Position numbers and translations under genes: made by a program
In this document: piece after piece, positions 40,337 to 60,345 of the stretch
Position numbering within the stretch: position 1 is the stretch's first letter
Layout: every line of letters starts with the position of its first letter
Assembly: GCA_963747025.1 (NCBI GenBank)
Contig: CAVVDJ010000007.1
Location: forward strand, 30,616-94,615
Length of the DNA stretch: 64,000 nt
Direction: 5' to 3'
Origin: an uncultured beta proteobacterium
Lineage (GTDB): Bacteria > Pseudomonadota > Gammaproteobacteria > Burkholderiales > SHXO01
The notes under the pieces: model-generated
What the model was told of the DNA's origin: nothing
The model's input: only the letters and a program-made list of their open reading frames with translations
The model's database searches: none

Positions 40337-40347
40337 GGCGAGCCGAA

Positions 40348-40641: not shown

Positions 40642-41192
40642 GCTCGCTGGCCCCTACCCCTCGCGAGCTCCCAACTCTGCAATAGAGCTTCTAGCAGCGA
40701 GGCACGAGAGCCCTCCCGACTGGCCAGGGGGTTGCGCAGGACCTCAGAGGCCACGCGTCGTCATCCCTAGCGAGCCGCGTCTTCTCGCGGCCCGCGGTAC
40801 CCGCCTCCATCTATAACTTTCGGCAAGTTCTGATCTGCTCTCCCCCCGCATAGTCTGAGCGCATACGGCGGAATAGCTCCGGATCGCGTGGCTGGCTAAG
40901 CGCTGGATTTCGTTTCGAAAGGCAGATGCTGAATAGACTCCTCCCGTGGCAGATGATCTGGATGCCTCCAGCGTCGGGGTTGTCTGCCTATTTTATTGCT
41001 CCCGCGCCCGCATGGACGCGGTAAGACCAACATCAGCCCATAACAAGATTCTCTCCAGCTCAGGAGTTCAACATGGTCCCCTCAGGCCCTCGACCCGAAA
41101 GCGGCATCAACGCAAGGCCCGGCGGGACGCCTGGCGTCATTGAGGTGCAAGCCGAGGGACCTGCGGCCCGGGCCAGACCGCCCCAGGGAGAC

Positions 41193-42284
41193 ATGACAGC
41201 CATCAAGAATGGGCGCAAGATGACGGCGGCACTGGAGCCGCTGCCCATGAGAGTCCTATTGGCCGTCCATGGAGGTCTCTTCGCCGACGCGTTCAGCGGG
41301 GCGCTGACCAAACTCGCGCACCGAGTGCAAGTCGAGCGTTGTGACCCTGAGCGGCTCGACGACTTTGGCCCGCAGGACGGCTTCTCGCTGGTGCTGATCG
41401 ATGCGGACGCTGTATTGGCGCGCGCTGCAAGCTTGGTGCGCGGCTGTCGCGACCGTCTTCCCGGCGTGCCGGTGGTTGCACTGGCCAGCGCTCTGGACGA
41501 CGGTTTCATTGCCGGCATCATGAACGCCGGTGCCCAGGCCTACCTGCCCAAGACCTATCGCGAGACGCAGGCACTGGGCGTACTGCGGGTAGTGCTCGAT
41601 GGTGCGAGCCACCGGCCCCACGCGGACGCCGAACACAGTGCGGGCGATGCTCACGTGCCTGCCTTCGCGGCGGACGGCGGAAACGGCCGCCGGGCAGGAC
41701 CCAATCCGTATAGCCTGACCGGGCGTGAGCTCCAGGTTCTCATGCACGTCTGTGAGGGACGGTCGAACCTCAACATAGCGAAGCGCCTCAGCATCACCGA
41801 AGGCACCGTCAAAATCCATCTCAGCAACTCCTATAAGAAGCTCGGGGTAGAGAACCGCACTCAGGCGATCCGTATCGTCGAGCGCCTCGAGCAGGTGCAC
41901 AACATCTCGCTGCACGAAGCCGAGGAAGGCGTGTCGCTGCGCGATTGGCTTCTGCCGCATATGTCGGACGAATCCCATCACAAGGGAGAGATCCTGTTCC
42001 GGAAAGGAGATCCGGCGCGCGCCCTCTACTACATTCAGCAAGGCAAGGTAGCGCTGCCGGAGATCGGCAAGCAGATGGGCGAGGGTACTTTGTTCGGGGA
42101 GATCGGCATCTTCGCACCCGAGCATTCGCGCACGTGCAGTGCGCGCTGCGAAACCGACGCCCGCCTCTTCTGCTTGACCGCTGAGCGGGCCAAACGCCTG
42201 TACTTCGAGAATCCTCAATTCGCCTATCACGTAATGCAGCTGATCGCACAGCATCTGCTCGACGATCAGTCCCGTCGGCATTGA
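41193..42284 (+). CDS. transcriptional regulator: atypical REC + LuxR HTH + C-terminal cyclic-nucleotide-binding domain (alternative start 41073)
   Basis: LVLID..VVAL..GAQAYLPK receiver; LTGRELQVL..GRSNLNIA..TVKIH HTH; GEILFRKGD..GKV..FGEIGIF..RTCSA cNMP fold; one uninterrupted ORF. Confidence 0.88.
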   Translation: MTAIKNGRKMTAALEPLPMRVLLAVHGGLFADAFSGALTKLAHRVQVERCDPERLDDFGPQDGFSLVLIDADAVLARAASLVRGCRDRLPGVPVVALASALDDGFIAGIMNAGAQAYLPKTYRETQALGVLRVVLDGASHRPHADAEHSAGDAHVPAFAADGGNGRRAGPNPYSLTGRELQVLMHVCEGRSNLNIAKRLSITEGTVKIHLSNSYKKLGVENRTQAIRIVERLEQVHNISLHEAEEGVSLRDWLLPHMSDESHHKGEILFRKGDPARALYYIQQGKVALPEIGKQMGEGTLFGEIGIFAPEHSRTCSARCETDARLFCLTAERAKRLYFENPQFAYHVMQLIAQHLLDDQSRRH

Positions 42285-42328
42285 CAGGCCCCTGACCGCG
42301 CGCGGCGTAGTGCTGCACGACAGCCGCC

Positions 42329-44709
42329 ATGAACCCGCGCGCTTTTCTGGGTGTACCCTGGCTGACCTGGCGGCATGGTGTCATCGCCGGCCTGGTGCTG
42401 GCACTCCTCGGATCGGTGCTCACCGTCCTGCCGGCGCTTTGGCCGCTGCAGGAGAGCTTCGACCTTTGGCTCCTGTTCAAGCTGCGCGGCGGCAAGTCGC
42501 CACCCGACGATGTCGTGCTGGTCACGATCGACCAGCAGTCATCAGAGCGGATCACGCTGCCGAGCGATCCCGTCGCGCGAGACCGCTGCGTCGAATCTCA
42601 GGGTCGATGACGCGCCCGCCTCCCATGAGAAGCTGCCTCCGCCGCACTTCGTGATGCGCTGGCCCCGCTGCGTGCACGCCCTGGCGGTGCACGCGTTGGC
42701 GCAGGCGGGGGCACGCGCGATCGCACTCGATATTTCTTTTCGCCCATTACTGCCGAGCGGATCGGACAAGGGCCAGCGCTTCGCTGAAGAACAGGATCGG
42801 ACTCTGGCCGAAGCGATGGAATCGGCGGGAAACGTGCTGATCGCGCAATGGCTCGACCGGTCAGGCCAAGTCCGTCCGCAGAGCAGCAGACGAGCAGACC
42901 GACGGCGTGGAGCGACCGGCACAGATTAGCGCACTGATCGAATCGTCCGCACTCGGTGCGGCACCCTTACGCCTCGCCTATGGCATGGCCGGCCGTGTCA
43001 ACGGGTTCGCCGTCTTCAGCCAGGAAGACGGACCGATGTCGAGCATGCCGGCGCTGCTGCTGCACCGCTCCCACGCAGAGGTGCATTCGGACCTCGTCCG
43101 CCTGATCGCGAAGGCCAGGCCTGAGGACGCAGAACTGCTGCCGCGGACGGCCGAGGCTCTGGAACAGCGACGGCCACTCCAAGCCACTTCTCTGCTGATC
43201 CGGCATCTGGTTCGCTCGCAGCCGATTCTGGCGGACACCTTGCACGATGCTGCTGAACGAGTGAGGACAGCGCCGGATTGCCCGCGCAGCACCGCACCGC
43301 GTTGCGGGCGCTGGTCGATCTGTATGCGGGCGACCCGGTGCGGTATCTCAACTTCTACGGCCATCCGGGAACGTTCCGAAGCGTGAGCTATGCAGACGTC
43401 CTGAAACCTGGAGCTGGCAGCGCCGAGCAGCTAGCGCGTGAGGTGCGCGGCAGAACCGTGATTGTCGGCTACGTGGACTTCACCCCAGCTCAGCGCGACG
43501 ATCACTACCCGACGGTCTATACCACCACCGACGGCGTGAAGCTCAGCGGCAGCGAGATCCTGGCGACTGCACTCGCCAACCTCGCTTCGGGCAGCAGCCT
43601 GAAAGCTCTTACCGCTTCCGTGGCGAATGCTGGTGACGGCCTGCTTCGGGCTGGCACTGGCGTTGTTGCTCTTGGTCCCGCCGCCGGTGCGCGGACTTGT
43701 CGCCGGGTTCGCGCTGTGCGCCGTCTATCTCGGGCTGGCACTCCTCCTGTTCCGGGTCTCCGCCGTGTGGTTGCCGTTGCTGATTCCGCTTGCCTGGCAG
43801 GCGCCGGCCGGCATCCTGTATGCGATCGCCTATCACTACCGCGACATGCGGCGCAAGCGCGACGAGCTGCGCCGACTGTTCGGCAAGTTCGTTCCGGACC
43901 CGGTCATCGAAGGCCTGCTCGAGAACCGGGCGCGGCTGGACACCGTCAACGAGCCGGTGTACGGGGTTTGCCTTGCTACCGATGCCGAACGGTTCACCAC
44001 GCTGGCCGAGGGTATGCCCCCATCCCAGCTGGCGCGATTCCTCAACCGATACTTCGAAGCGGTCTTCCCGCCCATCACGGAGAAGCAAGGCGCCGTCGTC
44101 GACTTGATCGGCGATGCGGTCCTGGCGCTGTGGACCGGAGACGATGGCGAGAGCAGTCTGCATCTCAAAGCGTCCGGGGCTGCGCTCGAGCTGATGTCGG
44201 CAGTCGACCGGTTCAACGCGGCTTCGCCAACGCTCCGACTCCCGACCCGCATCGGGCTCTCGGGCGGCGAGGTGGCCACCAGCCCGATGGGAGCGGTCAA
44301 CCACTTCGAGTTCCGCCCAGTCGGGGATACCGTGGTCACTTCAGTTCGCCTCCAAGCGCTGAACAAGGAGTTGGGCACGCGCATCCTCGCAGCGGAGCCG
44401 GTGATCCGCGGGCTCGACGCGCTGCTGGTGCGGGACCTGGGGGTATTTCAGCTGCGCGGGAAGAACCTGCCCACACACGTCTTCGAAATCGTTGCCGAAC
44501 GCGAGAGTGCCAGCGCCTACGTCATGCAGCTCTGCCTGGAGTTCGCACTCGCCCTGGACGCTTTGCGCGGGGGCCGCCGCGAGGCCGCCCTGGAACGCTT
44601 CCGCGCCATCCAGGAGCGCTATCCCGACGACGGGCCGACGAGCTTCTACCTCCGCTGGCTGGCCGCCAACCCCTCGTGGGGCGGCGGTGCGATCCGACAG
44701 GCTGCTTGA
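42329..44709 (+). CDS. CHASE2 sensor + class III nucleotidyl cyclase (several frameshifts)
   Basis: N-terminal TM, VVLVTIDQQS, WPRCVHA, IALDISF, DRTLAEA, YLNFYG, SGSEILATALAN, three TM helices, TDAERFT, IGD, RIGL, GDTV, LRGK. Confidence 0.88.
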
Positions 44710-44895
44710 CTACCGCCTCGCAGCAGCGCCAGGTCACTCCTGTTACGGGTCACTTAGGACGAGCACCACAAGTGGCATACCTATGACCAAAGTCAGCTTG
44801 CATACAAGACTGAAAGGGTTTTACATAGAGCTTGCTTTCGGTCGTCATGCTTAGCCTTATGGAACCAGCAAGGTGCCAATGGGAGGGGGTTAAGG

Positions 44896-47800
44896 ATGTC
44901 GCGGTCGGGCGTCTCGATCTATGCACGGCTGGCGCTGGGGTGCGTCACTCCGGCGCTTTTGGCGGTGTGCGCAACGCCCACGCGCGCGACGGCTGCCGAC
45001 GTGCCTCCCGCATGCACGCCCATCGTGGCGCGGATCGTGTCTATGCAAGGCGTCGTCGAAATGCGCCGCGCGGGGCGGCAGGACTGGGCCCCGGTGACGC
45101 GCCTGGATACACCCGTGTGCCAGGGTGACGTCGTCCACGCAGGCCCACGCAGCCGTGCGGCGCTGGTCATCCTTCCCGAGAAATTTGTCCGGCTCGACCA
45201 GAATTCCACGGTCAGCATCAGCATTGAGGGCGACGAGACGGTAGTCGAGTTCTTCCAGGACGAGACCACGCCCAGGGATGCCTGCGGCGCGGGCTACTTC
45301 ATCACCCGGTTCCCGCGCAAGTTCAAGGTCCGCACCCCGTTCGTCAACGCGGCGGTGGAAGGGACCGAGTTCCTGGTCAGCATGAGCTGCAGCGCGACTT
45401 CGGTGGCAGTGTTCGAAGGCAAGGTCAGCGCCGAGACGCTGCTCGCCAACGCCGAGCGGTTTGTCTTGAGCAGCGGCGAAACGCTCTCGGCTGGCCCCGG
45501 TGAGCCGCCTGCGATCAAGGTGCTGGTCAAGCCGGTGGACGCTGTTCAGTGGGCGCTGTACTACCCACCGCTCAGCGCACCCGGGCCGGGCGTAGGACCA
45601 GACCAACAGTGCGACCAGTCCGCGCCAGACGAGAGAAGCCGCTGCCTCATGGTGCGCGCCGAGCAGCGCTTGCGGGTCGGACGGGTAGACGAAGCCCAGG
45701 CCGACATCGATGCCTCGCTCAAGCTCGCTTCCGGACAACAGCGACGCTGAAGCCCTGCTTTCAGTCATCGACGTGGCCAAGAATGACAGGCAGAAGGCCT
45801 TGGCATTGGCCCAGCACGCCACCCAGCTCGATCCAGTCAATCCGCGCGCCTGGATCGCGCTGTCCTATGCGCAGCAGGCCAGCTTCAAGCTGGAGGAGGC
45901 GCTGAGCAGCGCCGAGCGCGCGACCGAGCTAGAGCCGCGCAGTTCCATTGCATTGACACGTGTGGCTGAGCTGATGATGTCGCTAGGCAAGATCCGGTCA
46001 GCCGTGCGCGCCGCGCAAGCAGCCATCGATGCGAACCCCAATGACAGTCGTGCGCATACGATTCTCGGCTTCGTAAACCTGGCGGACATCGATATCAAGA
46101 AGGCCCGCGCAAACTTCGAAGCAAGCAATCGTCCGGGATTCAAGCGATCCGCTACCGCGCTTGGGGCTGGGGCTGACGATCATCCGCGATGGGGATCTGA
46201 AGGCAGGACGCGAGCAGATCGAGATCGCCGTCGCGCTCGATCCGACCAACTCACTCCTTCGAAGCTATGTGGGCAAAGCCTACTACGAGGAGAACACACC
46301 GGCGCGAGATAAGCTCGCCGCCATCCAGTTCGGCTTGGCTGAGCAACTGGACCCCAAGGACCCTACACCCTGGTTTTATGACGCAACCCTGAAGCAAACA
46401 CAGAACAGACCCGTCGAGGCCTTGCACGATCTGCAAGAGTCCATAAGCCTGAACGATAACCGCTCGGTGTATCGCTCAAGGCTCCTGCTCGATCAAGATC
46501 TAGCTGCGCGTAGCACTGAGCTCGCCACAACTTACAACACGCTCGGCTTTGGACAGCTCGGGTTGATCGAAGGCTCAAAGTCAGTCGATACCGATCCCAC
46601 CAACTACTCAGCCCATCGCCTATTGGCAGATTTATTCGTCGACTTCCCGCGACATGAAGTAGCGCGAGTAAGCGAGCTCTTGCAATCTCAACTGTGGGCA
46701 CCACTAACGCTTAACCCACTTCCGCCTCTACTGGCGGACGTGCACCCTTTGATACTTGCAGGTGCAGCTCCGAGCTCGGTAGGAATGAACGAATATGCAC
46801 CGCTTTTCACCAGCAATTCTGCCCTCGCTCAAGTCTATGCAGTCGCTGGCGGCCAAGGGACTTTGGGCGACCAGATCATCGTCTCTGGGCTCAGCAACAA
46901 CTTCGCCTTCAGCTTGGGACAACTGCACTATGAGACAAACTACTTTCGCGAGAACAGCAATCTCTCCAAGGATATCCTGAGCGGTCTATTTCAAACTGCT
47001 CCCAACTACGATACGAGCCTGCAACTCGAGGTTCGCGCGTCCGAGACGCAAAGCGGTGACCTCGCCTTCCGATTTGATCCTAACAACTTTTTCCCTACCC
47101 AGACTACCGTGGCGACGGAATTGGTACGCGTGGGCGGAAGATATCGGGTCGACAGTCAATCTGGCTTCATAGCGAGTCTAACTTCCCAGTCCCGCCGGGA
47201 AACAACCTCCTTCCAAGGGTTCCCATTCCTGGATGCCACAGCCCAGACCGGCAGCGGCGAGGCACAGTATGTGTACAACGCCCCCTCCTATTCCGCCATC
47301 TTGGGCGGAGGGCTGCTTGACGGTAACCTGAAAGGCGACTTCTCCTTCTTCGGTGCTCCATCCGACAACGATCTGCAAGGCCAAAACTACTACGCCTACG
47401 GGACACTGATCGACAGCAAGCTGAGGGCGCGCGTCGAACTCGGGCTCAGCTACGATCACGCCAGCGGTGTGGATATAGGGCCGTCTCAGAATGCAGTCAA
47501 TCCGAAATTTGGCTTGAGCTGGTCCCCGACGCCTGATCTCCTCTTGCGTCTGGCATGGTTCCGGGCGATGAAACGTCGATTGCTGGGTGAGCAGACACTC
47601 GAGCCGACGCAGATCGCTGGGTTCAACCAGTTTTACGACGACTTCAACGGAACGCAGGCGGAAACCAGGGGGATTGGCCTGGATTACGCACCGTCCCAAC
47701 GCGTCTTTGCAGGCGTGCAAATCTCATCGAGGCGCCTTAAGGTGCCGCAATCGTTCACGCAGTTTACCTATGATTGGTATGAGAACAGCGGTCTCGCCTA

Positions 47801-48221
47801 TCTGTATTGGGTGCTGAGCAAAGCTTTGGTGGTTACTGTCGACTACAGCTATGAGCGATTCGACCGTTCGGCCGATTTCATCGGAGTAGAGAGCTTTACC
47901 AAGGTTGTAACCCAGCGCGTTCCAATCTCCGTAAATTGGTTCCCTTTTGGACCGGGGCCGTGGACGATTAAGGTTACCTCCCAGTACGTCAACCAGCAGG
48001 GAGATTTTGTTGATGCGTCCGGAACGCCGTTCACGGGACAAAGCAACTTCTGGGTGACGGATGTCGGGATAACGTACCAGCTGCCGCAACGACACGGATC
48101 GTTGTCGCTGCAGGTCAGAAACCTATTCGATAAGAAGTTCCGGTTTCAGGAGACGAACTTTGCTACTCCGACCCTCTCGACAGGGCAACTCATATTGGCG
48201 CGCTTAGCGCTGCAGTTTTGA
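44896..48221 (+). CDS. FecR + TPR + outer-membrane beta-barrel (TonB-receptor-like, NsrA-like) protein (two frameshifts)
   Basis: Signal peptide, FecR motifs GD.V..GPRSRA..VRLDQNS and TPFVNAAVEGTEF, DAVQWALYYPP, TPRs, LNDNRSVYRSRLLLD, beta-barrel ending in Phe. Confidence 0.87.
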
Positions 48222-48316
48222 TGTTTTATGTCCCGAGCATGCGCATTCTATCGTCGTGCAAACAGCAAGACCGCATACTCGGTATCGTCGTGTTGTGCAG
48301 ACCAAGGGAGAAAGCT

Positions 48317-48875
48317 ATGAGCTTTGACACAGGAAATAGAGTAGCCAATGAAAACGGTTGGGATCGTTCCGAGCGCGCACGTCGCTTTGACTTCCGACCG
48401 GCTGGGTTGATGCGACACTTTTGCATCATCTTGTCCACACTCGCTCTCGCGGTGCCTTTGACCCTTCAAGCCGCGGGTACCGTCACAGATCAGAACGGCA
48501 GATCGTACGACGTGGAGATCGGCTACTACTACACTGCCGGAGGGAGGACTACTGTTTGCAGAGGAATATGGTTGGAGTTAAACGCACGATTCAGACAGGC
48601 TCGTGTTCGTCATGTGCCATTCCCTCGGACGTCGGCGTTCGGTCCCGAGCCGAGTTGTTTGACTACACGAGTGAGTAGACTGGGAGGCTCCGGCAAGCCG
48701 GCTGCATTCGTTGTATACGTGGCGCCCGACCCGAAGCGTGGGGTCGCACCCGTCATTACCGGAGCAGCTGGCTGCGGGCGAAACGCGCGGGGTCGACTTT
48801 GCAGCAACGGATGAATCCGCTTGCAAAGCGGGCCAACAGTGCATCCCCTGCTTTGGCGGCTGCTGTTGCAGGTGA
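48317..48875 (+). CDS. small exported protein, probably frameshifted, with a Cys-rich C-terminus
   Basis: RBS agggag before ATG 48317 (alternative 48410), signal-like FCIILSTLALAVPLTLQA; annotated frame stops at 48814, the shifted frame ends ACKAGQQCIPCFGGCCCR* at 48875. Confidence 0.5.
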
Positions 48876-49095
48876 TGCAATGCGCATGTGGTCGGCAACG
48901 CACGGGGGGAGTTCGCAAGGCCTAGGGCGACGTCCCCGGATCGCGCTCGTCTGCCCCAAGGGGTACGAGAGCTGGGATGTTCGCCCGAGACTTTAGGGCC
49001 CCGGGCCGCGCTGCCGTCCCCGCAACTCGACAAACGTGCGGGAGAGCCGCAACTCTCCCGCCGTCTCCTCACACCTAAGCTAGGAGGACAGAGAG

Positions 49096-50382
49096 ATGGA
49101 ACTTAATTTCATTGTATGGTTGGCCGCCGGCAAGTCGCTTGATGAGCTAAAGCAGGCACTCCAGGGGCGAGGCCGCGTGTTGAGGCAGCTGAGGATCTCT
49201 CCGCAAACCGTTCTGGTGCGACTGACAGAAGGGGACAATCAGACACCGAGCCAAATATTCCAGGCGGTTGGACCGATCGTTGAAAAGTTCGAGCCGGACG
49301 TTGCGAATATCCAAAATTTCCAGCAACCGATGTCGATCTCAACCAAGCCTGACTGCTTCGCTATCCAGGCAATTCCGGGGGCGTGGGACTTGCTCAGCCA
49401 GCTCGGTAAAGATCGCTTCGGCTCGCCAACACTGTGCGTTGGCGTTATCCAGAAGGACCCCATCGATCCATTGGATCCCCGCCTGGCCGGGACTCTTTCG
49501 GATGGGCAGGCGCGCTTACAGCTGGTGGTCGACTGCATCGACAGCGGCGACGTAAATGGCAGTACTGCCTACAGCGCATTTGTGCGACAACATCTGCGCG
49601 ACTTCTCACATGCTGCGGGCGTATGCGGGATCATCGCGGCGACCCCCGTGGGAAGCTCCCAGGTGCAGGGCATTGCCTCGAACACCCGGCAAGCATTCCT
49701 CCGGTACCAGCCCGGAGGCGCGGCTGCATATGCTGAGCTGCTGCTGTGGCTTTCAGGAGTCAACAACTCCCCGCCGCCAGAGTTGGGCTTGGGCCTCGGC
49801 ACGCTTCAGACACCACGCGCCGACATTATCTGCATTACCGTCGATTCGGTTCTGAGCCTTCCCATGATAGTAGCAGAGGCTGTCGAGCAGGTTACGAGAC
49901 AAGGCCGGGCGGGCAAGGGAACGATCGTTGTCTGCTCTGCTGGAAACGACGACCGGCAAGTGAATTGGTTGGCGGCTCACCCACGAGTCATTGGTGTCGC
50001 GAATTCATGCGTGACATCCGCGGGGAATGAACAACGCTGGGAAGCATCGAACTTTGGTCGCGAGATCGATCTCTGTGCGACGGGGCAAGGTGTTGAAAGC
50101 CTGTCGCTCCCCAGCATTACGGGAGATCTCTCGACGCAAACCTTTGGTGGCACTTCCGCGGCTGCGCCGATGGTCGCTGGGGCAGTTGCCTTGATGCTAT
50201 CCGCGAATCCGCAGCTTACTTGTGACGAGGTCCTCGATATTATCTGCGCCTCAGCCGACAAGATCGACTCAGGAAACCCAGCCGCACGCTGGCAGAACGA
50301 AGGGGGCACCCTGTTCAGTCCGTTGTACGGATTTGGTCGGCTGAACGTGGAAAACGCGGTTCGCAAGGCGGCGGGAGGGTGA
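49096..50382 (+). CDS. S8 family subtilisin-like serine peptidase
   Basis: RBS aggagg; SHAAGVCGIIAA, GRAGKG..SAGND, SNFG..DLCA, FGGTSAAAPMVAG, YGFGRLN; no signal peptide. Confidence 0.87.
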   Translation: MELNFIVWLAAGKSLDELKQALQGRGRVLRQLRISPQTVLVRLTEGDNQTPSQIFQAVGPIVEKFEPDVANIQNFQQPMSISTKPDCFAIQAIPGAWDLLSQLGKDRFGSPTLCVGVIQKDPIDPLDPRLAGTLSDGQARLQLVVDCIDSGDVNGSTAYSAFVRQHLRDFSHAAGVCGIIAATPVGSSQVQGIASNTRQAFLRYQPGGAAAYAELLLWLSGVNNSPPPELGLGLGTLQTPRADIICITVDSVLSLPMIVAEAVEQVTRQGRAGKGTIVVCSAGNDDRQVNWLAAHPRVIGVANSCVTSAGNEQRWEASNFGREIDLCATGQGVESLSLPSITGDLSTQTFGGTSAAAPMVAGAVALMLSANPQLTCDEVLDIICASADKIDSGNPAARWQNEGGTLFSPLYGFGRLNVENAVRKAAGG

Positions 50383-50626
50383 TCCTCTGGGTTGCATAGG
50401 ACCAGTGCTTGGGAAAGAGGGGGCGGTAGAGGCGATGCTCAAAGTAAACGCGACGCTGCCGCAGCGTTCGAGATGTGTAGCAAGAAAGTCCGCTTGAGTC
50501 GACATAAGAGTTGGTCACGGTCGTGCCGATCCAATGAAGGCGAGGGCTCCACGTCTCGCACAGGACATGCTGTTCCAAGCATGTCTCAGCAACTCTTTGG
50601 CAGGCGAAGAAGAATGAGGTATCTAG

Positions 50627-51517
50627 GTGAGCCTTGCTAAGAATGCGCGACCCGAGGGTATCCAAACGCCACTCAACTGGACCGCGGCCACGATCGCGTA
50701 TTACGAGCAGACGCTGTTCGACTATCGCACGGTCTGGCTGAATCCAAGCAACCTCGCGTTTCATTTCGGGTTCCACGACCACGAGCACCGGAGCCATACG
50801 GACGCGCTCGAGAACACCAATCGCACGCTTGCCCGAATCGGGGGGATCCGCGCCGGCGATCGCGTGCTCGACGCGGGATGCGGTCTGGGGGGAAGCAGTT
50901 TTTGGCTGGCTCAACACCTGGGCGCTCGAGTCGTAGGGATCACTTTGGCCCAAAGCCAGGTCGATCAAGCTAGCCGGATCGCGGCTCGACGTCGCTTGGC
51001 GGACAAGGTCCGCTTCGAGCGCGCCGACTTCACCTGCACACCATTTCCGACAGGCTCGTTCGACGTCGTCTGGGCGGTGGAGAGCATCTGCCATGCGGAA
51101 AAAAAAGGCCTCTTCTACCGCGAGGCCGCACGCTTGCTCCGCCCCGGGGGCCGCTTGGTGATCGCCGAATTCATCCGTACGACGCGCAGTCTGAATCAGC
51201 ACGCTGAACGGCTAATGCGAGAGTGGTTGGACGGCTGGGCAATTCCTGATCTCGACACTGAGCAGGAGCACATCGACGCCGCTGCGGCCGTCGGCTTCAG
51301 AAATATCAGCTTGCGAGACTGCACGGTCTTCACTCGCCCGTCCCTCGCAAGATTGTACCGGATGGCGGCGCTGGCTGAGCCGCTGAACGAAGTGCTGCAC
51401 CTTCTGGGGATGCGCAGTCGGACCCAACATCGCAACGTGATCGCGTCCCTTCGACAGTATCAGGCGCTCGAGACCGATTCGTGGTTCTATGGCGTTCTCT
51501 CCGCTACGAAGCAATGA
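50627..51517 (+). CDS. SAM-dependent methyltransferase (gamma-tocopherol/sterol C-methyltransferase-like)
   Basis: FHFGF, VLDAGCGLGGS, GITL, SFDVVWAVESICHA, LRPGGRL, LDGWAIP. Confidence 0.88.
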   Translation: MSLAKNARPEGIQTPLNWTAATIAYYEQTLFDYRTVWLNPSNLAFHFGFHDHEHRSHTDALENTNRTLARIGGIRAGDRVLDAGCGLGGSSFWLAQHLGARVVGITLAQSQVDQASRIAARRRLADKVRFERADFTCTPFPTGSFDVVWAVESICHAEKKGLFYREAARLLRPGGRLVIAEFIRTTRSLNQHAERLMREWLDGWAIPDLDTEQEHIDAAAAVGFRNISLRDCTVFTRPSLARLYRMAALAEPLNEVLHLLGMRSRTQHRNVIASLRQYQALETDSWFYGVLSATKQ

Positions 51518-54500
51518 CCAGTTCTCTGCAACAGTTCCTGTCCGGGCGACCTGACCCGTTTGTGCCCGGCTACCGCGTTCTAGCACGCGCGTGGGACGAT
51601 CTGCGCACGATCGTTTTCAGCGCCGAAGACCTGCGGACGGGCGCCCGCGTGCTGATCAAGGTGCCCAGGTCGCAGCATCCATCGGCACAGGACCTCGAGC
51701 AGCTGCGGCGCGACTACGAGATCGGCAAATCGATCGACTCCGAGCATGTTGTCAAACCGCTCGCCCACCTCGCGCATGAGGGCGGCCACTTCGTCATCGT
51801 CGACGACGACGGCTCACGGCCCATCGGCGAATCTTTCGATGCCGGTGGGCGGAGCCTGCTGCCGTCTCTGGAGTTCGGCGTGCGGCTCGCCGACGGCGGT
51901 CGAATCGCTGCACCGCTCCCATGTCATGCACAGGAACCTCAATCCGTACAGCATCTGGCTGCACCCGCGCGACTCGAGTATCCGGATCACGGACTTCTCG
52001 CTCGCCTCCAACGCGGCGGTTGAGGGGCCACGGCTCCAAAGCGCTTCGCGGCTGGAAGGAGATCTGCGGTACATCTCTCCGGAGCAGACGGGGCGCGTCA
52101 ACCGTGCAGTCGATTTCCGCAGCGACTTGTACTCGATCGGCGTGCTGATGTATCAGGTGTCTGCTGGGCGCGCCGCCATTCGACTCACAGGACGTGCTGG
52201 AAGTGATACACGCTCATCTCGCGCGCATTCCGCCCTCGCCGCATACGTTGAACCCGGCGATCCCCCCGCCGGTTTCCGACATTGTCATGAAGCTGCTGTC
52301 GAAGGCCGCAGAGGAACGCTATCAGAGCGCGCGGGGGTTGAAGGCGGATCTGGAGGAATGCCTGAATCAGTGGCGCGCGCGAGGCACCATCAGCGGCCTG
52401 GCAGTGGGCGCGCGCGATTCGTCGGCGTCCTTCCGGGTATCCCGCAGGCTCTACGGGAGGGGAGATCAGCTCGACTTCCTGCTGGAATCCTTTGATCGAG
52501 TGTGTCGAGGGATGACTGAAGTCGTTGTGGTGTCGGGCCCGCCCGGAGTCGGTAAGTCGCAGCTGGTCAAGGCTCTGCAAGGACAAGTCCGTGAGCGCGG
52601 CGCCTTCATCTCGTCCAAGTTCGATCAGTTCAAGAAGAACGAGCCTTACTCCTTCATCATTCAAGCGTTCACCGAGCTGGTAACGCAAATCCTCGCCGAA
52701 CACGACCAGCGCATCTCGCACTGGAAGCAAAGGCTGACCGAGGCTCTGGGGGCAAACGCGAGGGTGATCACGGAGGTGATTCCCGAGGTCGAGCTGATCA
52801 TTGGACCGCAACCGCCGATCCCCGAGCTCCCGCCCAAGGAAGCACGCAACCGGTTCAACCGCGTGCTGCGTCAATTCGTCCGGGTGTTCGCCAGAGATGA
52901 TCATCCGTGCTCCATCTTCCTCGACGACCTGCAATGGGTGGATTCGGCGTCCTTGAACCTGGTGAAGATTCTGGTGACGGACCCGGAGGTCAATCACCTC
53001 CAACTGATCGGGGCGTATCGCGACACCGAGGTTGGTGATTCCCACGACGTAATGCTTGCGCTCAATCAGTTGCGGGTCGCGAATGTCGAAGTGCGCGAGC
53101 TTCGGCTCGCTTGCCTCGACGTCGGTCAGGTTACCGATCTGCTGGTGGACACGCTTGGCTGCGAGCCTCACGATGCGCACCCCTTAGCGGAACTCGTACA
53201 CCAGAAGACGGGCGGCAACCCGTTCTTCGTCAATCAATTCCTCCTGTTCCTGCAGCAGGACGAGCTGATTCAGTTCGACTATCGCGCCGGCAAGTGGGTC
53301 TGGGATCTCCGCCGCATCTGGGCGCTGGGGATCACCGACGACGTGGTCGAGCTTATGAATCGCAAGCTCAACACCCTTCCCGCCTCTACACGTGAAGCGC
53401 TGAAGGTCGCAGCCTGTCTCGGCAACCGCTTCAATCTGGCCGATATCGCGCTGGCTCTGGAGGAGTCGGTGCACGTGGCCTTCGAGTCGGTTCTCGCAGC
53501 CATGCGCGAGGGACTTATCGTCGCCGCGGACGGGGAAGCCGGCGAGGGCATCGGCGAACGCGCTTTCGACCGGATCGTCGACGACGGATCATTGCGCGAC
53601 ACCGCGCTGCGCTTTCTGCACGACCGCGTTCAGCAAGCCGCCTACGCGCTGATCACGCCGGAGGACCGTCCGCGACTTCACTTCAAGATCGGAAGGCTGC
53701 TGCTCGCCAGCCTTTCCGCGAGTCAGCGCGAAGCGATCCCGTTCGCAATCCTCGACAACCTCAACTACGGCGCCGATCTCCTGCACAGCAGCCCGGAGCG
53801 AGAGGAGATGGCGAGGCTTAATCTGCTCGCCGGGCAGCGCGCTCGAGAGTCGACCGCCTACCAAGCCGCCCTTGCGTATTTCAGGAGCGGCATGCGGCTT
53901 CTGGACGACGCCAGCTGGAGCCAGCAGTACGAGCTCACCATGGCGCTTCATATCGAGCGCTTCGAATGCGCCTACATGACCGGGAGCTCCGAGGAAGCTA
54001 ACGATTTGTTCCGCGACGTCATCGCGAACGCCAGAACCAAGCCGGAGAAGGCAAAAGCGTACTATCTCAAGATCCTGCTCACCACCAGCCTGGACCGAAG
54101 CAGCGAAGCGCTGGCCCTGGGGTTCGAGGGGCTGCGCCTGTTCGGCCATTCCTTGCCCGCCAACCCGTCCAAGCTGCATCTGTTGCTCGAGATGTGCAAG
54201 GTCATCGCCCTGCTCAGGGGAAGGCGCGCATCCGATCTGTTGCTCCTGCCGCGCATGCGCGATCCCGACCGCCAGGCGACCATCAGCTTGTTCATGAGCA
54301 TCTGCCCCCCGGCTTATTTCCGCAACACCGACCTGATGGCGCTGTCGGCGCTGAAGATCATGTCGATGTCCGTGCGTTACGGCAACACCAGCGTGTCGCC
54401 CTATGGCTATGCGATATACGGTCTGGTGCGCGGCGGTGTGTTCGGCGACTACAAGACCGGCCACGAGTTCGGCCAGCTGGCAGCCAAGCTCGCGGGGGAA

Positions 54501-56748
54501 GACACCGATCTGGTGCAGCGGTGCAAGGTCCAGCTGCTGTTCTGGGGTTTCGTCAACTACTGGCGCCGGCCCGTCGAAGGCAGTGTCTCGATGCTGCGCG
54601 AAACCCTGAAGCTCGCACTCGATTGCGGCGAGCTCCAGTACGCGAACTATTGCATCCTGCAGATCATCTTCTTGAGCCTCGCTCGCGGCGCGAACCTGGA
54701 TGACGTCTACACGGAGTGCACCGGCTTCGAGAGCTTCGTCAAACAGACCAACGACGGGTTCACGATCGCAAGTCAGTGGATTCGCAAGCGCGGAATTCTC
54801 GCCCTCAAGGGCAGCACCCTGGCGAACGACAGCCTCAGCGATGAGGAGCACAGCGAGGACAGCCTGGTCGAAAAGTGGCGCTCGGCAGGTAACCTGACTA
54901 CGCTTTCCTACTACTACATCGTCAAGCTCCAACTGGGGTACCTGTTCGCCAACTACAGCTCGGCTTACCGCTTTGCGCAGGTCTCGGAGGCGCAGATCAA
55001 AGAGGCCCTGAGTCAGATCTGCGTCGCCGAGCACTACTTCTACTGGGGGCTGACGTCGGCCGCGTTGATCCGGCAGCAAGGCAAACGCGATCGGACACTG
55101 TGGCGCCGCGTCGCGCGCTGCCGCGCGAAGCTGCGTCATTGGGCAAGGAACTGCCCCGAGAACTTCGAGCATCAGTATCTTCTGCTCGAAGCCGAAATCG
55201 CGTCCTTGCGCGAACGGACGGTCGAGTGCGAGCGCATGTATGACCGCGCCATTGCATCTGCTCGGTCCCAGGGGTTCAGTCACGTCGAAGGCACAGCCAA
55301 CGAGTTGGCCGCTCAGCATTATCTGAGGACCCGGCGGCCTCATATCGCTCGGGTCTACTTCCAGGCGGCGAGGGGCGCGTTCTCGCGCTGGGGCGCAACG
55401 GCCAAGGTGAAGCAGCTCGACGCCGAGTTTCAGGGCCGTCTCGTCGAGGGGCCGCAGGGCTCTGCGGCGGAGCCACAGCCCAAAAGTGAGGCGACGCCGC
55501 CCGCCTTGGCGAACCTGATCGATGTTGACCTGCTGATGAAGGCGTCGGCTGAGCTGTCAGCCGAGATGGAGTCGGAACGGCTGCTGCTCAGATTGCTGCG
55601 CTTGATACTCGAGAGCGCGGGCGCTCAGTCCGGGTGCTTCGTCGTGGACGAGGAGGGTCAGCTGCGCGTCGAGATCGCGTGCCTTGGGGACGGAAACCAG
55701 ACGAGCCGTGCTGCGCGCCCTTCCGGTGGACGACGCTCATCTCTCCGGTCAAATCGTCAGATACGTCCTGCGGACGGGACAGCAGCTGGTGATCGACGAC
55801 GCTACGATGGACGTGCGATTTGCCAATTGTCCGTACATTCGCTCCGCGCGGCCGCGATCGGTCCTCTGTTCCCCGCTCAGCAAGAACGCCCAGGTGATTG
55901 GCGCCCTGTATCTGGAGAACCGATTGACTCCGGGGGCGTTCACGGCAGAGCGTCTGCCCTCGCTGCGGCTGCTGTCGCAGCAGGCCGTGCTCGCGATCGA
56001 AAATGCCACCTACTACCGCAAGCTCAAACTGAACAACGATGCGCTGCAGGCTGCGCTGCAGAAAGTGGAGATCCTGGAGCGAGTCCGCACCCACCTGACC
56101 AAGTTCGTCCCGCAATCGCTGCAGCGCCTGATCGAGGCGAACCCTGAGCAGCCCGATCTCGAGGTGCACGACGAAGATGTCTCGATCGTGTTTCTCGACA
56201 TTGCGGGCTACACCCGCATGAGCGAATCCGTCGACCCGCAACAGGTCGGCACCCTGGTGGAGACCTACTTCTCGAGTTTTCTGGATGTCATCAACAGCAA
56301 CAAGGGCGACGTCAACGAAGTCCTCGGAGATGGGTTGATGGTCATATTCCGCCACCCTGATCCAACTGAGCATCCGGTGCTGGCTGCCCGCGCGGCGCTC
56401 GGCATCCGGGACCGGACCAAGCAGCTCAACGCCGCGTTGCGCGGCACCTTGCCCCCGGTCACGATCAACATCGGGATCAACTCGGGAATCGTGAGCCTGG
56501 GCGCGAAAAAGATCCAGAGCACGTTGGGCACGCGCTGGACCTATGCCGCTAGCGGAACGGTGACGAATCTCGCCGCGCGGATCGGTGCGTCGGCGACCAA
56601 TGGAGCCATCCTGGTAAGTGAGGTTACGGCACGGCGCATGGCGGGGCGCTTCGAGCTGCTGGATCTCGGCCCGCAGCGATTCAAGGGTGTAGCCAAGCCG
56701 ATCTCGATTTCCCGCATCGTCGGCGAGCGAGCCGAGGAGCGGCTATGA
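51514..56748 (+). CDS. multidomain Ser/Thr kinase-like + AAA(STAND) ATPase + helical region + GAF + class III nucleotidyl cyclase (three frameshifts)
   Basis: YISPEQTGRVNRAVDFRSDLYS, LYGR, SGPPGVGKS, FLDDLQWVD, TGGNPFF, FLHDRVQQAAY, GAF LYLENR..GAFT, cyclase FLDIAGYT, LGDG, IGINSG, NLAAR. Confidence 0.88.
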
Positions 56749-58577
56749 CCAAGGTGGTCATTCTCGGGGGCGGAGTCGCCGGACTGTCTGCGGCGCATGA
56801 GTTAGTTGCCCGGGGATTCGAAGTGGAGGTGTACGAGAAGCTCGACGTTTTCGGCGGCAAAGCGCGCAGTATCGACAACAAAGGTTCCGGGGTGGGTGGC
56901 CGGCGTGATCTGCCCGGCGAGCACGGGTTCCGTTTCTTCCCCGGCTTCTACCGCAACCTTCCGGACACGATGAAGCGCATCCCCTACAAGTTGAACAAGC
57001 GCGGCGTGTTCGACAACCTGCTGCCGGTCCCGAGGTGCGAGCTTGCGCAGGATAGAGAAAACCCGCTGGAGATCCCGATCCAGCTGCCGCGCGCGCTGGA
57101 GGACATCCGCCGGGCGCTGCGCGCCGCTCGACACTGGAAGCGGACCGGACTCGAAACCAAAGACATGCTGTTCTTCGCCGGGAAGATGTTGCGCTTCATG
57201 GCAAGCTGCGACGACCGGCGTCAGAACGAGTACGAAGCAACCTCGTGGTGGGAATACATCGGCGCCGACAGCAGATCGGCGGCGTATCGCAAGTTCCTGG
57301 CCGAAGGACTCACGCGCTCGCTCGTGGCCATGAAGGCCAAGACCGCCAGCACGCGAACGGTCGCGTCGATTCTGACGCAGATGAGCCTGGACTTGATTCG
57401 AGTTGGGGGAACGCCTGACCGGGTACTGAACGGCCCGACCAGCGATGTCTGGATCGATCCCTGGGTCATGCACTTGCGGGGGCAGGGAGCCGAACTGCAC
57501 GCGAACTGCACAGCGACCGAGCTGAAGCTCGACGACACACGCGGCCGCATCGACGGGGTGTGGATCGTCCGCGAGCGCCGCGGCCTGCCATCGATCAGGA
57601 CACTCGTTCGCGGCGACTACTACATCGCCGCCGTACCGGTCGAGGCCATGGAGACGTTGCTCGAAAGGAGCCCCGACCTGGCGGCGCGCGAAGGCTCGCT
57701 CAAGGCCTTGCAGGATCTCCAAGTGGAATGGATGAACGGCATCCAGTTCTATCTTAAGCGCGACGTGAGCATCGTCCGTGGGCACACCGTGTATCTTGAT
57801 TCGCCCTGGGCGCTGACTTCGATCTCTCAGCGGCAATTCTGGGAAAAGAGCTACGATTTTTCGCAACTGGGGAACGGCCAGGTGCGCGGGATCTTGTCCG
57901 TCGACATCTCGGACTGGAACACGCCAGGCGACCGCAAGCACAGGAAACCCGCGAGTCAATGCAACGAGAAGGAGATCAAGGAGGAAGTCTGGGAGCAGAT
58001 CAAGGCCCACCTCCAGTGGTCCAGGGAGGATGCACTGCATGACGACGACCTGGTCGATCCCAAGAACATCGGTTTCCTGGATCCGAGCATCGTGACCCCG
58101 GAGGATGTAGACGATATCTTGCGGCTACGGAGAAGACAGACAGCAGGTGAGACGGTACGCTCGCGAGCAGCGGTGGTCCAGGAGCTGTTGCCGGACACCG
58201 AGCGATTCAAGAAGGCCGGCGCGAAGGTGTTCAACACGGAGCCGCTGCTGATCAACACCATCAACTCACTAAAGGCGCGGCCCCACGCGGTCACCGAGAT
58301 TCCAAACCTGTTCCTCGCTTCGGATTACGTCCGCACTTCGACCGACATCGCGACGATGGAGGCGGCCAACGAAGCCGCCCGGCGCGCAGTGAACGCCGTC
58401 TTAGAAGCCTGCGGCAGCCGCGAGCAGCCCTGCCAAATATTCAACCTCGATGAGCCTTTCTTCTTCGAGCCGCTGAAGCAGCTCGACAAAATGCTGCTAG
58501 AGGCTTCTGCGCAGTTCGACCGATCACGCTTTAAGCGCGATCAGCAGGGCGTCGGAGATTCGCGCAGCACCGGCTAG
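56745..58577 (+). CDS. FAD-dependent oxidoreductase, carotenoid desaturase/HpnE/CrtU-like
   Basis: GGGVAGL Rossmann motif, GGKARS, GEHGFRFFPGFY, VLNGPT, NLFLASDYV, TMEAANE. Confidence 0.87.
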   Translation: MTKVVILGGGVAGLSAAHELVARGFEVEVYEKLDVFGGKARSIDNKGSGVGGRRDLPGEHGFRFFPGFYRNLPDTMKRIPYKLNKRGVFDNLLPVPRCELAQDRENPLEIPIQLPRALEDIRRALRAARHWKRTGLETKDMLFFAGKMLRFMASCDDRRQNEYEATSWWEYIGADSRSAAYRKFLAEGLTRSLVAMKAKTASTRTVASILTQMSLDLIRVGGTPDRVLNGPTSDVWIDPWVMHLRGQGAELHANCTATELKLDDTRGRIDGVWIVRERRGLPSIRTLVRGDYYIAAVPVEAMETLLERSPDLAAREGSLKALQDLQVEWMNGIQFYLKRDVSIVRGHTVYLDSPWALTSISQRQFWEKSYDFSQLGNGQVRGILSVDISDWNTPGDRKHRKPASQCNEKEIKEEVWEQIKAHLQWSREDALHDDDLVDPKNIGFLDPSIVTPEDVDDILRLRRRQTAGETVRSRAAVVQELLPDTERFKKAGAKVFNTEPLLINTINSLKARPHAVTEIPNLFLASDYVRTSTDIATMEAANEAARRAVNAVLEACGSREQPCQIFNLDEPFFFEPLKQLDKMLLEASAQFDRSRFKRDQQGVGDSRSTG

Positions 58578-58664
58578 GGCCGCTCTCTGGAGTCCCTTCC
58601 GAACGCGAGGACGCTTCCGATCATCGGCGCCGGGTAGCGCCAACTCCCGATAGCCACCCTGGTT

Positions 58665-59911
58665 CTACGCGCGACGCGCGACAAGCACTGCGTTGGACCC
58701 GCCAAACGCGAAGGAGTTGGAAAGCGCGTACTCGACGTCAGGCGCCGGCCTGCCCTTGCACGGCACGCAATCGAGGTCGCACTCCGGGTCCGGCATGGTT
58801 AAGTTCGCCGTTGGAGGAATACGTTGCTTCTTGAGCGCCATGAGGGTAATCGCGAATTCGAGCGCTCCCGCCGCGCCGACCAGATGCCCGTGCATGGATT
58901 TCGTCGCGCTCACCGCAAGACGGCGTGCGTGCTCGCCGAACGCCTCCTTGAGCGCATCGATCTCGATCTTGTCCCCTGCGGGCGTCGCCGTCGCGTGCGC
59001 GTTGACGTAGCCGATCGCCTCCCGCTCGAGCCCGGCGTCTGCAAGCGCCGCGCGCATCGCACGCACTTGGCCACCAACAGCGGGCTGCGTGAGATTGTGC
59101 CCGTCGCTCGACGCACCGAAGCCGACGATCTCGGCAATGGGCTGACCTCCGCGGGCGCGCACCGCATCCGCCGTTTCGAGCACCAAAGTGGCGGAACCCT
59201 CTCCTAATACGAAGCCGGTACGGTCTTTCGCGAACGGACGGCTCGACGCCGCCGGCCCGTCTGGATGCTCTTTCGCGAGCACGCCCAGTGCCTCCCAGGC
59301 CACAATCGTTCCGTCGTTCACCATCGACTCGGCGCCACCCGCCAGCGCGCAATCCAGGTAGCCATCGCGGATCGCACGAAAGGCTTCGCCGATGGCAACG
59401 GCGGATGACGAGCAGGCGATCGAGTAGGTGAGGGAAGGGCCGAGCATCCCAAAGCGCATCGAGATATGGCTGGCCGGCGCGTTCGCCATGATGAGAGGAA
59501 CGGAGGTCGGCTTGACCTTGCGGCTATGGCGCTGATAGTAGATACGGTAAGCGTCCTGGATCGCGTTTGCGCCTCCCAGTCCACAGCCCATGTAGATGCC
59601 GGCAGTGGCGGGACCTCGGTCCTCCGCGAGCAGATTCGCCGCCGACAGCGCACGCTGGGCAGCTATCACGGCTATCTGGGCGACCCTGTCCATGACGAAC
59701 AGTTGCCCTTTCGGAATCACTCCAGAAGGATCGAACTCGACCGGCGCAAGAAGTACGTCGACGCTGGATTCCTCGGACCCACTGCGAACTTTGCGGATCG
59801 CCGACTCCCCCGCGTATAGCCGCTCAAACACGTGATCGGCGTCGCCGCCATGCGGCGAAACCAATCCGATGCCGGTGACGAAAACGCGACGTCGGCCAGC
59901 AGCGGTCGTAT
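58665..59911 (-). CDS. beta-ketoacyl-ACP synthase (FabF/FabB family); start codon probably lost to an indel
   Basis: RRVFVTGIG upstream of the called start, ACSSS, NAHATAT, KSMHGH, SNSFAFGG: complete Cys-His-His triad. Confidence 0.92.
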
Positions 59912-60150: not shown

Positions 60151-60345
60151 GGTGCGGACCCGTTGGTGGCTTGCAGCTAGGAAGGTGCAAATATACCATG
60201 GCAGTCGTGTGACGGCGGCTTGTGCCTGGCCCGAGTAGCGGTGCCTGGCTGGCCCAAGGTTGCCGGCACCTTCAGACCAGACTTGCCGTTCATACACCTG
60301 GGCGGCCGGCAGCTCCCAACGCTTGCACTCCATCCGGCGCGTTCG

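Follow-up and report, generated by a model that had tools for sequence, protein, structure and literature searches.

The 64,000-nt stretch of DNA analyzed here, called the window below and used for all coordinates, belongs to contig 7 of the genome of a bacterium that is given as an uncultured soil or sediment organism. At 41.2–48.8 kb it carries four genes which probably form a conserved trans-envelope signaling unit of the kind known for NsrA and CyaK of Sinorhizobium meliloti. The unit encodes a LuxR-type regulator with a cyclic-nucleotide-binding (cNMP) domain, a CHASE2 class III nucleotide cyclase, an outer-membrane protein composed of a FecR domain, tetratricopeptide repeats (TPR) and a beta-barrel, and a small protein with a cysteine close to its C-terminus. 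The stretch from 48.8 to 58.6 kb is read as variable cargo, and the frameshifts interrupting several of the genes as errors of the assembly. For this reading as a whole a probability of roughly 0.65 is estimated.

Compared with NsrA/CyaK, the unit appears to differ by belonging to a cyclase clade with an Asp/Arg substrate pair, by its LuxR-type cNMP effector and by a hypervariable cassette of barrel and small protein. A peptidase or a peroxidase often comes after this cassette, namely in 7 of 22 loci.

In the proposed mechanism, the outer-membrane protein would combine conserved periplasmic FecR and TPR parts with a hypervariable, plug-less barrel of 22 strands acting as receptor. An event at the cell surface or in the periplasm that involves the barrel and the small protein would be passed via the FecR/TPR part to the CHASE2 domain of the inner-membrane cyclase. 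The output of the cyclase would change, the nucleotide would bind to the C-terminal cNMP domain of the cytoplasmic regulator, and transcription would be altered through its LuxR-type helix-turn-helix (HTH).

Conservation of the unit

Eight genes lie on the + strand between 41073 and 58577 (list of open reading frames (ORFs) and Pfam scans). All of them carry the domains named in the original prediction, which took the eight co-oriented genes as one self-contained signaling system with a dedicated effector. The unit itself comprises the regulator (41247..42284, in an ORF open from 41073; Pfam, alignment A1, AF2 model), the CHASE2-transmembrane-class III cyclase (42311..44709 with an approximate start, in five frame pieces; Pfam), the NsrA-like FecR-TPR-barrel protein (44896..48221, in three frame pieces; Pfam, BLASTP, AF2) and the small Cys-ended protein (48218 or 48317..48814), which is assigned by its position after the barrel gene and has no family match.

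A search with the regulator sequence hit 40 of 41 related genomes at E≤0.001; only part of the hits are full-length, and in several genomes more than one full-length copy occurs. In eight loci of the genus, the genes for regulator, cyclase and barrel are arranged collinearly with those of the window. A scan using one genome per species yielded 31 other regulator loci (L-numbers below; G-numbers are the genomes compared, G000 being that of the window), of which 22 are full-length. Directly downstream of the regulator the CHASE2 cyclase is found in 20 of these 22, the exceptions being L040 and L036, the latter with a different cyclase joined to a STAND ATPase. Each of the 14 contigs running past the cyclase continues with the FecR-TPR-barrel gene, and a small ORF of 88–246 aa comes directly after the barrel gene in 22/22 loci with enough sequence.

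In the metagenome-assembled genome (MAG) of a Nitrospira (L048), the same cyclase-barrel pair is accompanied by a shorter gene of the LuxR-cNMP type in divergent orientation. In G103, a cyclase-barrel-small unit occurs together with an ordinary Crp-type regulator. Because of this last arrangement, the LuxR-cNMP regulator appears to be a lineage-specific effector swap.

The gene neighborhood across genomes therefore bears out one half of the predicted system, namely the recurring regulator-cyclase-barrel-small unit. The genes of the second half, encoding the S8 peptidase, the methyltransferase, the STAND-cyclase and the FAD enzyme, went unmatched at E≤1e-6 and ≥50 bits in the other 31 loci with a regulator, which speaks against one self-contained system of eight genes. 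The genome also contains at least 13 cNMP-binding loci, so that proteins other than the regulator could serve as receptor.

The regulator and its upstream DNA

As predicted originally, the effector is a LuxR-cNMP fusion and not a CRP-type protein. Pfam assigns a GerE domain (9.6e-18), corresponding to a LuxR/GerE HTH output domain of the NarL/FixJ type, and a C-terminal cNMP_binding domain (1e-14). The AF2 model (pLDDT 70) displays a (beta-alpha)5 receiver fold at residues 1–117 followed by a disordered linker, the HTH at 159–211, and a beta-roll at 240–311 with C-terminal helices. The receiver fold of the N-terminus is also backed by an NCBIfam match to ErdR, and sequence matches in the PDB are ChrA, VraR and NarL, plus cNMP domains. 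In a collection of 5.8 billion proteins the GerE+cNMP architecture is represented by ~110 clusters, all from metagenomes or MAGs and with automatic names only. No literature on a LuxR-cNMP fusion regulator was found, subscription journals lying largely outside the literature searched.

Within the receiver-like domain (alignment A1, read by eye), two residues are invariant or almost invariant, namely an Asp at the beta3 end and a Lys following beta5; the acidic pair after beta1 as well as the Thr after beta4 are absent. A histidine kinase gene was not seen in the regulator loci. Since the acidic pair is missing and no kinase gene accompanies the regulator, the domain is probably not phosphorylated and acts in a phosphorylation-independent way. 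The phosphate cassette of the cNMP domain reads FGEIGIF...R[TS], with RT in most members and RS in two. The RT form has been noted for the cGMP receptor CgrA in the accessible part of the report (PMC10187061). The cassette may therefore be taken as a weak hint of cGMP binding, given the two members with RS.

The translation start lies probably at 41247 (or 41193) and not at 41073, judged by conservation and a GGAG-like site. Upstream, a terminator-like hairpin with a T-run is present at 40948..40998 on the + strand (alignment of relatives, RNA fold). It is kept in 4 of 5 aligned relatives, has a single exact match in the window, folds with -29.5 kcal/mol (z -1.8) and is absent from the output of a generic terminator scan. 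This hairpin probably ends the upstream unit, so that the four-gene unit would begin its own transcript after it. Between hairpin and gene, 25–55 nt ahead of the likely start, the motif CATGACAG-N-AAGAATGGGCGCAAGAT is found at 41193..41223 (+ strand). Its columns are invariant in 6/6 aligned loci, though the flanks diverge or are absent, and this includes positions that would be synonymous if coding; one exact copy exists in the window. The motif is a candidate operator, promoter or leader element. For the conserved 14-mer upstream of the regulator a second good copy is absent from the window, so no regulon can be read from it. A consensus scan stayed at the level of shuffled sequence, with 0 promoters against 3.2 expected and 12 terminators against 12.7.

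A tandem pair of regulator paralogues, ~40% identical to the regulator of the window, stands before a single CHASE2 cyclase and barrel gene in L079 (G012), L081 (G010) and L035.

The CHASE2 cyclase and its predicted product

It was claimed beforehand that both cyclases of the region carry an acidic residue where adenylate cyclases have Lys. This was found to be correct, with Asp in the CHASE2 cyclase (GAVVDLIGD) and Glu in the GAF cyclase encoded further downstream. All regulator-linked CHASE2 cyclases, including the one from Nitrospira, have Asp at the Lys position and Arg at the -7 (Asp/Thr) position. The protein of the window retains both metal-binding Asp and the catalytic Arg, and in its subclade Val replaces the transition-state Asn.

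An HMMER scan returned 789 cluster representatives at E≤1e-30, and residues were counted in the best 150 of them. Here, the Lys position is occupied by Asp (125), Asn (14), Glu (5), Gln (5) or Val (1), and in no case by Lys. The second substrate position is Arg in 129, the transition-state Asn is kept in 145, and both metal-binding Asp are present in 150/150. The Asp/Arg pair argues against plain adenylate specificity. By hydrogen-bond logic it would suit guanine or a pyrimidine, and cGMP is the leading guess for the messenger of the CHASE2 cyclase. A literature search centered on CHASE2, with subscription journals again largely outside it, returned no measured product of a cyclase with this pair.

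In the GAF cyclase, Glu occupies the Lys position (GDVNEVLGD) and Ala the second one, similar to the Glu/Gly of the Cya2 chain 2w01. It keeps both metal-binding Asp, the Asn and the Arg, and aligns best to Cya2 (2w01) and its Lys-variant fusion (6fht). The signature of the Cya2-type guanylate cyclases, Glu plus a small residue, is thus present in the GAF cyclase and not in the CHASE2 cyclase. Neither of the two resembles a plain adenylate cyclase. Their signatures, Asp/Arg and Glu/Ala, also differ from each other and so do not imply a common product.

A third variant of the substrate residues in the same gene arrangement was observed in L088 (G046, a complete 3.7-Mb genome with 45% GC), in whose CHASE2 cyclase Glu takes the Lys position, Arg the second position and Ser the place of Asn. 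Furthermore, several distant loci (L040–L046) have an extra class III cyclase, with Asn at the Lys position and Thr at the second, ~3 kb upstream of the regulator.

The barrel protein and the small Cys-ended protein

The barrel protein starts with a signal peptide followed by FecR, TPR and a 22-strand barrel, which is encoded from ~46.4 kb onward in DNA of low GC content. In the window, a 686-aa piece of the protein gave a weak Pfam match to an outer-membrane barrel, and its AF2 model (pLDDT 79, pTM 0.78) displays TPR helices and then ~22 long strands. The top Foldseek matches are all TonB-dependent transporters (FpvA, FptA, PfeA, BtuB and FecA; E ~1e-17, TMq ~0.5). A plug is absent from the model, in which the TPR helices directly precede the barrel, and no match to the Plug, TonB-box or TonB_dep_Rec families was obtained with Pfam.

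Between the close relatives L026/L027 and L039/L042, the first ~540 residues of the protein are 77–95% identical and the last ~500 residues, the barrel, 12–42%, while regulator and cyclase of the same pairs are 65–98% identical throughout. The small protein is as hypervariable as the barrel.

The dip in GC content that had been noted by eye at about 46.3–50.6 kb is confirmed, with 0.54–0.60 across ~46.0–50.5 kb compared to 0.63–0.66 on the left flank. A recently acquired island was considered for 46–48.8 kb and rejected, since the GC content falls along the barrel gene and the following gene in all five other loci checked.

A Cys within the last seven residues is found in 19 of 21 small ORFs, or in 21 of 23 if those of G046 and G103, judged by eye, are added; as a control, 13% of the long ORFs of the window genome have such a C-terminal Cys. 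Many of the small proteins have a Cys-bracketed, hairpin-like motif around Gly-Gly, and they are interlinked only by chains of weak similarity. By eye, most of them show a signal peptide or a lipobox. Pfam and NCBIfam gave no family match for them, and a search of the ESM Atlas with one small protein returned sub-threshold matches only (best 0.82). The small ORF of the window has 198 aa with a signal-peptide-like stretch from the Met at 48411, the Gly-Gly hairpin motif EIGYYYTAGGRTTVC and a Cys at its end. Its extent is uncertain, as the tail may be altered by an assembly indel.

A complex prediction for the TPR+barrel piece of G021 with its own small protein scored 0.01, 0.42 and 0.77 (median 0.42), the best control reaching 0.00; the pLDDT of the partner is 39 or higher, and 1% or more of the contacts are common to the runs. 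Of 80 solved complexes, 58 attain the mark used for such predictions, as do 2 of 110 mismatches; with scores of 0.60 or under it is attained by only 7 of the 80 and by both mismatches. A contact between barrel and small protein is accordingly treated as a lead only.

Tandem NsrA-like genes, each with a small gene where the sequence allows, were seen in L032/L019 (G004), L046, L084 (G009) and L088 (G046). The variable cassette can thus be duplicated behind one cyclase. In L080 (G001), a DDE transposase of the ISAZ013 type (8436–9644) lies directly upstream of the NsrA-like gene, and the order is barrel, small gene, C39-like gene, cyclase.

Comparison with known systems

For S. meliloti, the available part of the literature describes NsrA and CHASE2 cyclases as relaying a proteinaceous signal to cAMP and Clr (PMC7529298, PMC13001267), and places the barrel of NsrA at residues 600–1200 (PMC7529298). 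On pSymB, a 1190-aa "FecR domain-containing protein" ends at the start of cyaK. Its position and size agree with that partial description, and it therefore fits NsrA. NsrA and the orthologue from G002 share the Pfam layout of FecR, TPRs and a C-terminal barrel, the barrel match of NsrA being weak. BLASTP against NsrA is weak but collinear (FecR 7e-6, TPR 3e-9; 22–26% identity in patches). A tblastn search with the NsrA-like protein of G002 against all plasmids gave no match, and NsrA was reached through CyaK instead.

The predicted likeness to the NsrA-CyaK layout was hence recovered. In both cases a FecR+TPR+barrel gene lies beside the gene of a CHASE2 cyclase (CyaK in S. meliloti, where CyaD1/D2 also belong to the pathway), and the effector is a cNMP-binding transcription factor. 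The gene order is, however, reversed: nsrA lies directly upstream of cyaK, whereas in the window the cyclase precedes the barrel. In CyaK the canonical Lys is accompanied by Ser at the Asp/Thr position and by Asn and Arg, in contrast to the Asp/Arg pair of the window cyclase. Clr is a CRP-family protein encoded elsewhere, whereas the receiver-LuxR-cNMP effector is encoded within the unit. Finally, loci of the window type always have a small Cys-ended gene after the barrel, and none is annotated at nsrA-cyaK.

In Campylobacterota, clusters of a CHASE2 cyclase, a FecR outer-membrane protein and TPR have been described (PMC9239204). As far as the accessible text of that paper goes, these contain a phosphodiesterase and separate FecR and TPR proteins, and a LuxR-cNMP regulator, a small Cys protein or an Asp/Arg pair are not mentioned in it.

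A precedent for a CHASE2 cyclase other than an adenylate cyclase is Cya2 of Synechocystis, a CHASE2-regulated guanylate cyclase whose Glu, according to the part of the report at hand, sets GTP use, with E488K switching the enzyme to ATP (PMC5995499). This Glu is common to the GAF cyclase of the window. In contrast to Cya2 with Glu and Gly, the CHASE2 cyclase has Asp and Arg, and the Glu type is represented here by the cytoplasmic STAND-GAF cyclase.

A barrel of the TonB-dependent-transporter type and a FecR domain also carry a surface signal inward in the FecA-FecR-FecI system, as outlined in the sources available in part. In the window, by contrast, FecR is fused N-terminally to the barrel, plug, TonB box and extracytoplasmic-function sigma factor are lacking, and the output is a cyclase. 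With the CRP/FNR receptors CAP, Clr and CgrA the regulator shares the cNMP-binding beta-roll and the FGE...R[TS] phosphate cassette. Its cNMP domain is, however, C-terminal, and its DNA-binding domain is of the LuxR/GerE type and preceded by a receiver fold.

In a cultured organism, co-oriented genes for a Crp/Fnr protein, a CHAT protease, a CHASE2 cyclase, a hypothetical protein and a ShlB-type barrel are present on pMSHV of Sphingobium herbicidovorans. Different from the window, the cyclase there has the canonical Lys/Thr, and the annotations name a ShlB/FhaC-type barrel and a CHAT protease.

The downstream genes

The S8 (subtilase) peptidase at 49096..50382 (Peptidase_S8, 3e-22, Pfam) contains IDSG, SHAAG, SAGND and GGTSAAAP, read by eye as the Asp-His-Ser triad and the oxyanion Asn. 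Orthologues were not found in 27 genomes of the genus, only 1 of 400 genomes of the order contained a weak match, and the closest relative among 5.8 billion proteins is 40% identical; a foreign origin of this gene is likely. Other enzymes occur after the barrel and small gene elsewhere: a distant S8 peptidase in G009, an M12B-like one in G017, a weak C39-like one in G001, and peroxidases in G041, G012 and G002. An extracytoplasmic enzyme of this kind thus appears to be a recurrent but interchangeable accessory of the unit, and the S8 peptidase of the window a probable variable one.

Further downstream on the + strand are the genes for a class I SAM methyltransferase (50627..51517; Pfam and NCBIfam, all under equivalog cut-offs), a Pkinase-AAA_16 STAND ATPase-GAF-class III cyclase (51514..56748; at least three frame pieces) and a FAD-dependent enzyme resembling amine oxidases and phytoene desaturases (56745..58577; Pfam, NCBIfam). 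Because of the ATGA start/stop overlaps at 51514–51517, between methyltransferase and STAND-cyclase, and at 56745–56748, between STAND-cyclase and FAD enzyme, these genes appear to form their own translationally coupled operon, separate from the unit. The kinase domain is read as a pseudokinase, since HRN and DFS replace HRD and DFG in the orthologue from G006.

The right border of the region is a fabF-like gene for a beta-ketoacyl-ACP synthase II (58665..59864, - strand). This gene lies 10.4 kb after the barrel in the window versus 0.5–2.3 kb in G002, G013 and G041, where the gap holds a small ORF alone or a small ORF and a DyP-type or haem-type peroxidase. The stretch at 48.8–58.6 kb therefore looks like variable cargo between the unit and the fabF-like gene, with the methyltransferase/STAND/FAD operon common only to a sister species, G006. 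There the block is collinear with the fabF-like and LpxL-like genes (89–92% nucleotide identity over 51011–63418), and G006 is the only one of 27 other genomes of the genus in which a search for the STAND-cyclase gave high identity. Paralogous kinase-STAND-GAF proteins of G006 show no cyclase-domain match. The homologues of the FAD enzyme in G023, G005 and G001 have no cyclase nearby, and that of G020 has one ~5 kb away.

A ligand, a protease and a lipid-modifying module had been proposed as attachments of the system. The small protein and, often, a peptidase indeed accompany the unit, but the methyltransferase/FAD block does not. For this block the reading as a furan/cyclopropane fatty-acid module (UfaM/UfaD) could not be confirmed, as the NCBIfam matches are generic and below cut-off and the FAD homologue of G023 adjoins a polyprenyl synthetase.

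The genome contains ~13 class III cyclase loci in addition to its cNMP-binding loci. A second cyclase within 12 kb is hence unremarkable (rough expectation 0.08), and together with the evidence on the cargo this is the reason why the STAND-GAF cyclase is treated as a neighbor and not as a limb of the same circuit. Elsewhere in the genome (G000:C3:106823–108136), a cNMP-binding ORF lies beside a class III cyclase whose match has an in-frame TGA.

Frameshifts

Between 41 and 57 kb, ~8 single- or double-base indels break genes. An alignment to G006 (88% nucleotide identity) places them near 42591, 42857–63, 43252–59, 43605 and 45728. Arithmetic from the frame pieces indicates a further one in the barrel gene near ~46120, and the STAND-cyclase gene is broken likewise. 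The CHASE2 cyclase and the FecR-TPR-barrel protein are each encoded by a single ORF in G002 and G006, and the kinase-STAND-GAF-cyclase of G006 is one intact ORF of 1753 aa (L073:524–5782). Contigs of relatives from four runs, ~90% identical, are free of the indels of the window at 42591, 42862, 43253, 43260–64, 43601–05 and 45726. Among public sequencing runs the best share of the window's words was 0.08, and none contains the exact sequence of the window. Most likely, the frameshifts are consensus errors private to this assembly.

Alternative explanations

Several observations weigh against the reading of a conserved four-gene unit with variable cargo and assembly errors. The indel-free contigs stem from relatives, i.e., from other strains, which leaves room for real pseudogenization. 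Val at the transition-state Asn position is shared by only 3 of the 150 representatives counted; loss of this Asn is expected to lower activity, as known from mutagenesis of mammalian cyclases, and the CHASE2 cyclase of the window may be slow or regulatory only. Four small proteins from the closest loci (L026, L027, L031, L079) have no signal peptide by eye and thus fit an exported partner poorly. The sister species G006 shares the methyltransferase-STAND-FAD block at the same place. Moreover, the regulator of G027 adjoins a cyclase-STAND protein instead of a CHASE2 cyclase, so regulators of the LuxR-cNMP family can pair with STAND-type cyclases, which keeps the idea of convergence alive.

The last two points favor the proposal that all eight genes are one system, in which an extracellular input (barrel, small ligand, S8 protease and CHASE2 cyclase) and a cytoplasmic input (the pseudokinase-STAND-GAF-cyclase with methyltransferase and FAD enzyme) converge through two cyclases on one non-cAMP messenger for the regulator. 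The co-orientation of all eight genes and the missing Lys in both cyclases would agree with it as well. We consider it improbable, however, as the genes of the second half are unmatched in the 31 other regulator loci and missing at this junction in G002, G013 and G041; outside the window genome, orthologues of the S8 peptidase are missing from 27 genomes of the genus (with a single weak match in 400 of the order) and the STAND-cyclase is conserved at high identity in one of 27. The FAD homologues mostly stand apart from cyclases, the nearest being the one ~5 kb off in G020. In addition, the methyltransferase-cyclase-FAD genes look like a separate coupled operon, the genome is rich in cyclase and cNMP-binding loci, and the substrate pairs of the two cyclases differ.

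A different objection concerns the role of the barrel. It could be mainly a transport or surface protein with the small protein as a structural partner such as a plug; phages, bacteriocins or predators would drive the variability, and cyclase and regulator would merely report the state of the envelope. The grouping by Foldseek with 22-strand TonB-dependent transporters, the plug-less model, the replacement of the entire barrel and not of loops alone between close relatives, and the weak complex prediction with the small protein are all compatible with such a role. Nevertheless, Plug, TonB-box and TonB_dep_Rec matches are lacking, TonB/ExbBD genes were not seen in the loci (a genome-wide search was not made), weak support of this kind in complex prediction is more often wrong than right, and the tight linkage to cyclase and cNMP regulator as well as the S. 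meliloti precedent fit a receptor; a transport role is thus regarded as unlikely. Even less probable is that the locus is decaying, with real frameshifts and the cyclase, barrel and STAND-cyclase genes being pseudogenes in this strain. In favor of it, the indels lie outside obvious homopolymers, and no public run contains the exact sequence (best share of words 0.08). On the other hand, the stretches between the indels stay 88% identical to G006 and open in shifted frames, the adjoining DUF748 gene is likewise split, and every relative contig compared is free of these indels. The assembly (3.5 Mb) is scored 77.5% complete with only 16 contigs. Low completeness together with few contigs is usual for an indel-rich long-read consensus.

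Implications

So far, the coupling of a CHASE2 cyclase to a FecR-type outer-membrane protein is known from one genetic system, that of S. meliloti, and one comparative note. The present analysis adds a large clade of CHASE2 cyclases with an Asp/Arg pair (789 representatives at E≤1e-30, Lys in none of the best 150), a type of transcription factor that is predicted to read a cyclic nucleotide through a LuxR HTH and not through a CRP fold, and a putative receptor barrel with the fold of TonB-dependent transporters minus the plug. Barrel, obligatory small Cys-ended protein and, often, an extracytoplasmic enzyme would represent a hypervariable cassette within a conserved chassis. Natural variant pairs make the question of the ligand approachable for such receptors, since the effect of exchanging them could be followed through the nucleotide output.

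In ComQXPA and Agr of Gram-positive bacteria, a conserved transduction chassis surrounds a signal, a part of the receptor and a modifying enzyme that are all hypervariable. By analogy, the unit might serve polymorphic, pherotype-like self-signaling of Gram-negative bacteria. The small Cys-ended protein would be a secreted cue read only by the matching plug-less barrel variant and matured in some loci by the adjacent peptidase or peroxidase; through the conserved chassis of FecR-TPR, CHASE2 cyclase and LuxR-cNMP regulator, the output would be a nucleotide other than cAMP. Taken with all its parts, this idea is speculative and rather unlikely.

Neighboring features of the window

Rfam yielded zero families across the region. 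Beside the fabF-like gene, an LpxL-family or lysophospholipid acyltransferase is encoded on the + strand (58665–61200 for both genes), and both are syntenic in G002, G006, G013 and G041. The window ends within an rRNA operon, with the 5S rRNA and the 3' part of the 23S rRNA at 63025–64000 on the - strand.

Upstream of the regulator, the DUF748 gene (37632–40336) is split into two overlapping ORFs of 464 and 449 aa, which cover profile positions 395–614 and 654–1037, a split read as one more frameshift of the assembly; the gene is syntenic in most loci of the genus. Between this gene and the regulator lies an ORF of 102 aa (40333–40641) with a signal-peptide-like start and no family match. Its position is conserved in relatives, whose products (alignment A4) are Lys/Gly/Ala-rich and repeat-like.

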